From assembly GCF_003334255.1 (NCBI RefSeq), contig NZ_QOWU01000004.1: 64,000 nt of DNA; one strand, written 5' to 3'. The position numbers were made by a program, and so were the translations under genes. This document shows, in pieces, positions 33,667 through 33,817 of this stretch (the first letter of the stretch is position 1; every line of letters starts with the position of its first letter). The notes below the pieces were generated by a model. It did not search any database. It was not told where the DNA came from and saw only the letters and a list, made by a program, of their open reading frames with translations. This DNA comes from Escherichia coli (GTDB lineage Bacteria; Pseudomonadota; Gammaproteobacteria; Enterobacterales; Enterobacteriaceae).

Positions 33667-33668
33667 CC

Positions 33669-33704
33669 GTAGGCCGGATAAGATGCGCCAGCATCGCATC
33701 CGGC
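33669..33704. repeat. REP palindromic element downstream of frlR
   Basis: gtaggccggataagatgcgccagcatcgcatccggc (REP consensus family). Confidence 0.7.
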
Positions 33705-33739
33705 GATGCTGGCGCGTTGAATTTTACATCCCGTACGTT

Positions 33740-33778
33740 CCCCTCACCCTAACCCTCTCCCCAAAGGGGCGAGGGGAC
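33740..33778. repeat. Second imperfect palindromic repeat unit (cccctcaccctaaccctctcccc-aaa-ggggcgagggga)
   Basis: C-rich/G-rich arms around an AAA centre; resembles a recurrent enterobacterial intergenic repeat, family not assignable by eye. Confidence 0.45.
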
Positions 33779-33817
33779 CGTTCAGTACGGAATTTAGCTT
33801 GACGGTGCTATCCAGCA

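Follow-up and report, generated by a model that had tools for sequence, protein, structure and literature searches.

Two independent and already described dispersed repeats of Escherichia coli, one REP and one BoxC, stand in the spacer between the convergent genes frlR and yhfS, where the frl module ends on its 3' side, and recombination between this BoxC (BoxC1) and a second copy, which other strains carry next to trpS (BoxC2), very probably removed the yhfS-yhfZ block from the chromosome of some lineages.

Results

The frlR-yhfS spacer and its two palindromic units

All positions given here are those of the window, the whole stretch of 64,000 nucleotides of E. coli DNA that was analysed. This window is almost identical to the genome of E. 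coli K-12 MG1655 (6 mismatches over 25,001 bases), and MG1655 positions were converted by subtracting 3,471,117. The RefSeq annotation of MG1655, mapped onto the window and combined with the list of open reading frames, located frlR, the last gene of frlABCDR, at 32935-33666 on the + strand (TAA stop codon at 33664-33666) and yhfS, the last gene of the yhfZ-yhfS block, at 33818-34903 on the - strand, with its stop-codon end at 33818. The entire yhfS-yhfT-yhfU-php-yhfW-yhfX-yhfY-yhfZ block occupies 33818-41227 on the - strand. The RefSeq table of MG1655 contained only CDS rows over the frlR/yhfS stretch, and no repeat features.

The two genes converge on a spacer of 151 bp that contains two distinct palindromic units. 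The 141-nt repeat region folded with z-scores of -5.7 (+ strand) and -5.4 (- strand), none of 200 shuffled sequences folding as well; these scores, together with a 24-mer core that is expected 0.00 times in shuffled windows, showed that the repeat structure is not due to chance. An open reading frame of 51 amino acids at 33647-33802 was dismissed as spurious because it runs through the repeats. The initial annotation, made from the sequence of the window, had described two different palindromic units between the convergent ends of frl and yhf, and these were found to be the REP and the BoxC. They are adjacent in one spacer but are separated by about 25 nt rather than standing back to back. The end proposed for the cluster, position 33790, falls within BoxC, but the homology with other members of the family continues to about 33797.

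The REP element following frlR

Inverted-repeat and regular-expression searches identified a single REP at 33669-33704 on the + strand, which starts 3 nt 3' of the frlR stop codon. It consists of a GTAG tag (33669-33672) followed by an imperfect palindrome, GCCGGATAAGATGCGCCAGCATCGCATCCGGC (arms GCCGGATAAGATGC/GCATCGCATCCGGC), at 33673-33704, the arms of which (33673-33686 and 33691-33704) are 86% complementary. This REP subtype is extragenic and highly repeated, with a median of 20 places per E. coli genome, and the copies located elsewhere in E. coli align with it only over about 33667-33709. A permissive Rfam scan of positions 33000-34500 gave sub-threshold matches of the REP to the REP-derived naRNA4 (31.7 and 24.3 bits, for a gathering score of 59.5) and no family for BoxC.

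A second inverted repeat overlaps the REP and is a perfect repeat of 13 nt with arms at 33685-33697 and 33703-33715. The inverted-repeat search, the folding of DNA and RNA and the terminator scan delimited an alternative hairpin at 33682-33727 (+ strand), made of the inner part of the REP and of a locus-specific 3' extension, GATGCTGGCGC. This 11-nt extension is the exact complement of the inner REP and was not found in the REP copies located elsewhere. In RNA the extended hairpin reaches 16 pairs, and the T-rich tail TTGAATTTTAC, an interrupted T-run, comes directly after it. The folding programs chose it over the REP stem in DNA (-21.4 kcal/mol, z = -6.6) and also in the minimum-free-energy structure of the RNA. 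The unit with its extension was found in 3299 genomes, a number that matches that of the frl-bearing genomes (2943 + 342, plus a few). The terminator scan flagged 33704-33719 and the tail, with 1 site found for 1.0 expected in shuffled sequences. Judging by its sequence, the REP-extension hairpin is most likely the 3'-end or terminator hairpin of frlABCDR.

REPs stabilise the 3' ends of mRNAs, and gyrase binding and mRNA stability are general roles of REPs and BIMEs. Liang, Rudd and Deutscher are said to have described in 2015 that REPs can reduce translation when they lie about 15 nt or less from a stop codon. Binding and cleavage by the REP-associated tyrosine transposase (RAYT) is a biochemical property of REPs (PMC3333891).

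Identity of the second unit

The second unit, CCCCTCACCCTAACCCTCTCCCCAAAGGGGCGAGGGG at 33740-33775, is part of a longer imperfect palindrome, the arms of which are found at 33724-33749 and 33767-33792. It is a BoxC element, also known as PIT, TMECO no. 15 and HPGQ 38. The published BoxC/TMECO pattern, 5'-CCCTCNCCC-N3-6-GGGNGAGGG-N3-GGGNGAGGG-3', matched positions 33741-33775 of the - strand in a regular-expression search. From this pattern and the catalogue coordinates, the core (CCCTCGCCCCTTTGGGGAGAGGGTTAGGGTGAGGGG) was assigned to 33740-33775 on the - strand and is of type A with one mismatch. The other BoxC copies aligned by BLAST with positions 10-76 of a query spanning 33722-33798, and five copies were also aligned with one another; the full extent of the family is thus 33731-33797, with the G-rich strand being the - strand. 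An outer stem is formed by CCGTAC (33731-33736) and GTACGG (33785-33790). Within this element, a segment of 43 bp (TCCCCTCACCCTAACCCTCTCCCCAAAGGGGCGAGGGGACCGT, 33739-33781, + strand) has an identical copy in direct orientation beside trpS in other strains.

This BoxC copy was catalogued individually in two published studies. Table 1 of Holder et al. (2015, NAR; PMC4666352) lists it as no. 15 at MG1655 positions 3,504,892-3,504,857, which correspond to 33740-33775 of the window, and the supplement of PMC4666352 places TMECO no. 15 between frlR and yhfS. Kaplan et al. (2016, NAR; PMC5100583) list the frlR/yhfS copy as HPGQ 38, in the conserved G-quadruplex/hairpin class HPG1. BoxC is annotated 33 times in the GenBank record of K-12, with lengths of 51-59 bp (PMC5172473), and there are 23 strict TMECO copies in MG1655. 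Maher's group rediscovered BoxC and named it the "potential intrastrand triplex" (PIT) element; as far as their work is summarised in PMC4666352, BoxC/PIT elements had neither terminator nor promoter activity. Evidence of an intrastrand triplex or a G-quadruplex in vitro was obtained for other BoxC copies, and no triplex protection was seen when another copy was footprinted with DMS in vivo (PMC4666352). The core found between frlR and yhfS could fold as a hairpin or adopt either a purine-motif intrastrand triplex or a (G3N3)x4 G-quadruplex structure; our folding of this copy covered Watson-Crick pairing only. No gene-regulatory role is established for BoxC.

Census and distribution of BoxC

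The results of our BLAST searches with 33722-33798 (E <= 1e-3) showed that BoxC is present in each of the 5426 complete E. coli genomes, with a median of 17 places per genome and a range of 1 to 28, so that the second unit is indeed the genome-wide repeat that had been supposed. Two K-12-derived laboratory strains among the matches listed had 19 and 20 BoxC places. Many human isolates carried just 1 to 4 copies, which is consistent with the variation between strains described in PMC4666352. Other copies, aligned over about 33731-33797, are located for example at dolP/yraQ, yafL, hrpB/mrcB and aaeR/tldD. The other BoxC copies inspected had no adjacent REP, and the proposed composite of REP and BoxC is thus not a recurrent one. 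Inverted BoxC doublets, in which a type A copy faces a type B copy, were observed in E. coli at yafL and hrpB/mrcB (positions 1460-1560 of each compared stretch) and in Ca. Contendobacter; such doublets had already been noted by Holder et al. (PMC4666352) and by Hoyne et al. Some BoxC matches, in 37 places, were on E. coli plasmid records (e.g. NZ_CP135245.1, 117185-117222, and NZ_CP074792.1, 1627-1664), although TMECOs are described in PMC4666352 as having no association with plasmids.

A scan of 100,044 species genomes with CCCTCACCCNNNCCCTCTCCC matched at least 5 MAGs, from Archangium, Afipia, Ca. Contendobacter and one unclassified bacterium, with no enterobacterial copies among the matches listed. 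The occurrence of BoxC/TMECO elements across phyla had already been published, with 3610 copies in 262 genomes (PMC4666352). In the unclassified MAG GL140_5, the BoxC-like motif is located inside a longer repeat of at least 90 nt, which is present in at least 30 copies on 28 contigs. The flanks of the motif are conserved and divide the copies into two subfamilies, one of the form ...CTAACGCGGGCGGAGCCCGCAA-motif-GGGGGCAACAACGTTCTTTTTATCACTG... and the other of the form ...CCAATGTGGGCAAGCCCACAA-motif-TGCAAACAACTTGTTTTTTATTG... We also compared, all against all, the open reading frames found within 1.5 kb of BoxC-like repeats in four distant genomes, and the only genes in common were those of ABC-transporter ATPases. 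As candidates for genes that mobilise BoxC, these ATPases were rejected as a chance association.

Arrangements of the region between yhfL and trpS

Separate junction-specific BLAST searches of the 5426 complete genomes, with the coverage thresholds of megablast, revealed three main arrangements between yhfL and trpS. The most frequent was yhfL-frlABCDR-REP-BoxC1-yhfS...yhfZ-trpS (2943 genomes), followed by yhfL-yhfS...yhfZ-trpS, in which frl is absent and neither REP nor BoxC is found at the yhfL-yhfS junction (2107 genomes), and by yhfL-frlABCDR-REP-BoxC-trpS, in which the yhf block is absent (342 genomes, including O157:H7, O55:H7 and several other lineages). These arrangements total 5392 genomes, and the other 34 include cases disrupted by insertion sequences, such as strain 81. 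The yhf block is thus a presence/absence module, as the initial annotation had anticipated: it is not universally present with identical junctions, and the second unit of the spacer has matches elsewhere in the genome.

In the frl-less genomes, a segment of 5.2 kb, extending from just past the yhfL terminator to the yhfS stop codon, is replaced by 30 unrelated nucleotides. The REP and BoxC1 were absent from all 2107 of these genomes and were kept where yhf was lost, which makes them the tail of the frl module and not a boundary marker shared with yhf. The view that the repeats mark yhf as a discrete module stands insofar as the breakpoint of the deletion described below falls exactly in BoxC, but the REP and BoxC travel with frl.

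Two deeply divergent allelic forms of the yhf block were observed. The yhfS genes of the frl-less strains EC21GDE043 and NRZ14408 are only 91-94% identical to that of K-12, a divergence that looks greater than is usual between E. coli strains, and frl-less genomes of this type are probably phylogroup B2-like. The divergent form is located at 12002-19412 in the stretches compared, and the search that counted the frlR-REP-BoxC1-yhfS arrangement placed 1821 genomes within a band of 90-95% identity. GTEN_24 is also frl-less and carries a yhfS gene that is 99.9% identical to that of K-12, with BoxC2 beside trpS (8895-9002 and 16411-16680 of the stretch compared), a mosaic for which a simple division into two lineages does not account. 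In O157:H7 strain 6535NalR, frlD is a pseudogene with an internal stop codon and hofM is frameshifted (11051-11836 and 22136-22914 of the stretch compared). In strain 81, an insertion of ISEc1 splits yhfS, and yhfT has an internal stop codon (12819-15205 of the stretch compared). These observations in 6535NalR and strain 81 suggest that both accessory operons are decaying in some lineages.

The site adjacent to trpS

The BIME that had been noted at 41394-41484 exists. It was delimited at 41394-41483 and comprises a Y-type REP (41394-41422, - strand) and, beyond a linker, a Z-type REP in inverted orientation (41450-41483, + strand), the GTAG tags of the two facing outward. It is located between the stop codon of trpS (41517) and the trpS terminator hairpin. 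Used as a query, the BIME gave at least 40 matching pieces in each of 4772 records. This site is occupied by the BIME in 1735 genomes (K-12 type) and by BoxC2 in 1525 genomes, K-12 not being among the latter, and it consists of 17 nt in two genomes that were read, both of which are frl-less and of the divergent-yhf type. Since K-12 has the BIME instead of BoxC2, it does not possess the substrate for a BoxC-BoxC deletion. Two further palindromic features were observed in the window, a pair of REP-like palindromes at 54361-54390 and 54434-54458, which resembles a further BIME, and, at 14255-14276, a short hairpin of the form GCCGGAT...ATCCGGC.

The presence of the BIME next to trpS had led to the proposal that it forms, with the REP/BoxC cluster, a pair of brackets around the yhf block. 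In the K-12-type window, however, the BIME is found where BoxC2 sits in other strains, so that no homologous repeats flank the block, and the right junctions of the yhf-less genomes carry the flank of BoxC2, a copy that K-12 does not have.

Probable loss of the yhf block between BoxC1 and BoxC2

In strain E2865, BoxC1 and BoxC2 form a perfect direct repeat of 43 nt (TCCCCTCACCCTAACCCTCTCCCCAAAGGGGCGAGGGGACCGT), the two copies being 7,699 bp apart with yhfS-yhfZ between them. We sampled eight BoxC2 genomes across the ranking; all eight had frlR beside yhfS and seven had a spacer of 151 nt, which is the K-12 length, the eighth being strain 0H26, in which BoxC1 is truncated. In a three-way alignment, the O157:H7 junction began with the left flank of BoxC1, continued through a single BoxC into the right flank of BoxC2 (CCGAGCGTTTTGATA) and ran straight into the stop codon of trpS. 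The segment missing from the yhf-less genomes corresponds to about 33782-41516 of the window.

A recombinant query was then built in silico from E2865 by joining the 277 nt that end in BoxC1 to the 175 nt that follow BoxC2 (452 nt in all). Two bovine strains contained the predicted junction with 100.0% identity along all 452 nt; the identity was 97.6-98.0% in a few other strains and 97.1-97.3% in O55:H7 and O157:H7, the total being 342 genomes. The flank haplotypes located right beside BoxC differ, with at least two of them being present, which speaks for more than one deletion event; the loss of yhf is thus probably recurrent, the number of deletions being derived from the flank haplotypes only. 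Where frl is missing and neither side has a BoxC, the yhf block is nevertheless found at this same place. The block would accordingly predate the BoxC pair, and we infer that the event was a deletion and not an insertion.

BoxC1 is also unstable on its own, as observed in strain 0H26 (NZ_CP081782.1). The spacer of this strain is 107 nt long (139-247 of the stretch compared) and has a deletion of about 44 nt that includes most of BoxC1 and leaves its right end, GGGGACCGTCCGG. Strain 0H26 has the same FrlR protein as O157:H7, its frlR and yhfS genes are both intact, and the yhf block and BoxC2 are still present. Since its BoxC1 is truncated, this strain, the closest yhf-bearing relative of O157 that was found, is not a direct precursor of O157:H7.

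Discussion

A model for the evolution of the locus

The following pathway would account for the structure of the spacer and for the loss of yhf. The REP located 3 nt after the frlR stop codon has gained, at this locus, an extension of 11 nt, giving a perfect hairpin of 13-16 bp with a T-rich tail that would serve as the 3'-end or terminator hairpin of frlABCDR. The effect of BoxC that can be demonstrated here is structural, BoxC acting as a portable homology of 43 bp. In the many strains where BoxC2 lies, as a direct repeat of BoxC1, between the stop codon and the terminator of trpS, yhfS-yhfZ is flanked by two BoxC copies, and recombination between BoxC1 and BoxC2 would remove the 7.7-kb block and leave frlR-REP-BoxC-trpS, as seen in O157:H7, O55:H7 and several other lineages. 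The exchange itself could be a RecA-dependent ectopic recombination or an annealing after a break.

Three other accounts of the yhf block and its repeats were weighed against this model. An exchange between REP-type elements, in which the REP/BoxC cluster and the BIME at 41394-41484 would be the two boundaries of a yhf module that is gained or lost, is extremely improbable. The Z-type REP of the BIME (41450) does share its orientation and the sequence GTAGGCCGGATAAG with the REP at 33669, and the block does vary between genomes, but the O157:H7 junction and the 40 matches listed (ungapped over 452 nt, at least 97.1% identity) kept BoxC followed by the flank of BoxC2 and not by the BIME. Moreover, the BIME is absent from the BoxC2-type and "empty" genomes that still carry yhf, and no REP-to-REP recombinant junction was seen among the junctions read or fully aligned. 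We also consider it very unlikely that BoxC is an attachment-like site at which yhf entered a frlR-BoxC-trpS chromosome, by a Campbell-type or enzyme-mediated event that duplicated BoxC, the O157 state then being the empty site. Integration at a repeat would leave direct repeats on both sides of the block as well, and the copy number of BoxC varies greatly between strains. However, the position of yhf in the frl-less genomes, where BoxC is lacking on both sides, argues against this account, as do the absence of any recombinase or mobility gene in or beside the yhf block and the finding of only ABC-transporter ATPases as genes recurrently associated with BoxC-like repeats in the four distant genomes; both yhf states are also found on identical flank haplotypes, for which a recent loss is the easier explanation. 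It is equally hard to credit BoxC with an active role, either through non-B-DNA (hairpin, triplex or G-quadruplex) that provokes breaks or as the site of an undescribed recombinase, pairs of BoxC being then excision and integration points that modularise frl and yhf. An active BoxC of this kind would, if real, explain both the near-identical motif of distant phyla and the instability of TMECO loci.

The remaining alternative concerns the function of the spacer. The REP and BoxC could together be a selected functional unit, a bidirectional structure that processes and stabilises the 3' ends of the convergent transcripts of frl and yhf, which we regard as rather unlikely. Both strands of the repeat region fold much better than shuffled sequences, a T-rich tail follows the REP hairpin on the frl strand, and the stabilisation of mRNA 3' ends by REPs and their reputed effect on translation near stop codons would be in keeping with such a unit. 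On the other side, no U-tract follows either hairpin on the - strand, BoxC/PIT elements lack terminator and promoter activity in the account given in PMC4666352, and the pairing of REP with BoxC does not recur at the other BoxC loci inspected. The frl-less strains keep yhfS without either element, and strain 0H26 has lost most of its BoxC while both neighbouring genes are intact. Deletion by recombination between BoxC1 and BoxC2, with the REP and BoxC as separate repeats of the frl module, is the reading that we retain.

Significance and comparison with known systems

The yhf locus provides a natural example of a 43-bp BoxC direct repeat that flanks a 7.7-kb operon, the recombinant junction being found on two or more flank haplotypes, in 342 genomes altogether. 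A BoxC-BoxC deletion would explain the absence of yhfS-yhfZ from O157:H7. Rearrangement affects TMECO loci more than it does control loci, and the authors of that comparison called the mechanism unclear (PMC4666352). Ectopic recombination between identical dispersed copies of BoxC would be a simple mechanism, and one open to testing, for the "genomic instability" left unexplained by Holder et al., and our results suggest that plain repeat-mediated recombination is one mechanism for the instability of TMECO loci. The two elements, the frlR/yhfS copy of BoxC, its alternative structures, the wide distribution of the family and its general link with rearranged loci are already published. The deletion of yhf between BoxC1 and BoxC2 is a small addition to what is known of these elements, both repeats being textbook ones and the copy having been catalogued individually.

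REPs are imperfect GC-rich palindromes of 20-40 nt with a GTAG or CGTC tag at one end. The frlR copy of REP shares with the REP family the GTAG tag, an imperfect GC-rich palindrome of about 32 nt, an extragenic location just after a stop codon and the presence of many copies, and it differs by its locus-specific 3' extension, which gives a perfect hairpin that is more stable than the REP stem. A BIME is made of two inverted REPs with a short linker, whereas the frlR copy is one REP and its neighbour is a BoxC and not a REP. The inverted BoxC doublets resemble the REP doublets called REPINs.

The K-islands are, as reportedly defined by Perna et al. in 2001, the K-12 segments that are absent from O157:H7. 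K-12 likewise has the yhfS-yhfZ block and O157:H7 lacks it, the place between frlR and trpS being a conserved one in the backbone; for yhf, however, the breakpoints can be assigned to a direct repeat of 43 bp and the polarity of the loss can be argued. The element found between frlR and yhfS is identical in kind to BoxC/PIT/TMECO/HPG1, being intergenic and present in multiple copies, at a locus that is rearranged between strains as TMECO loci are. To the published description of TMECOs, our analysis adds a second identical copy in direct orientation, present in about 1500 genomes, and a precise, probably recurrent loss of the 7.7-kb yhf block between the two copies.
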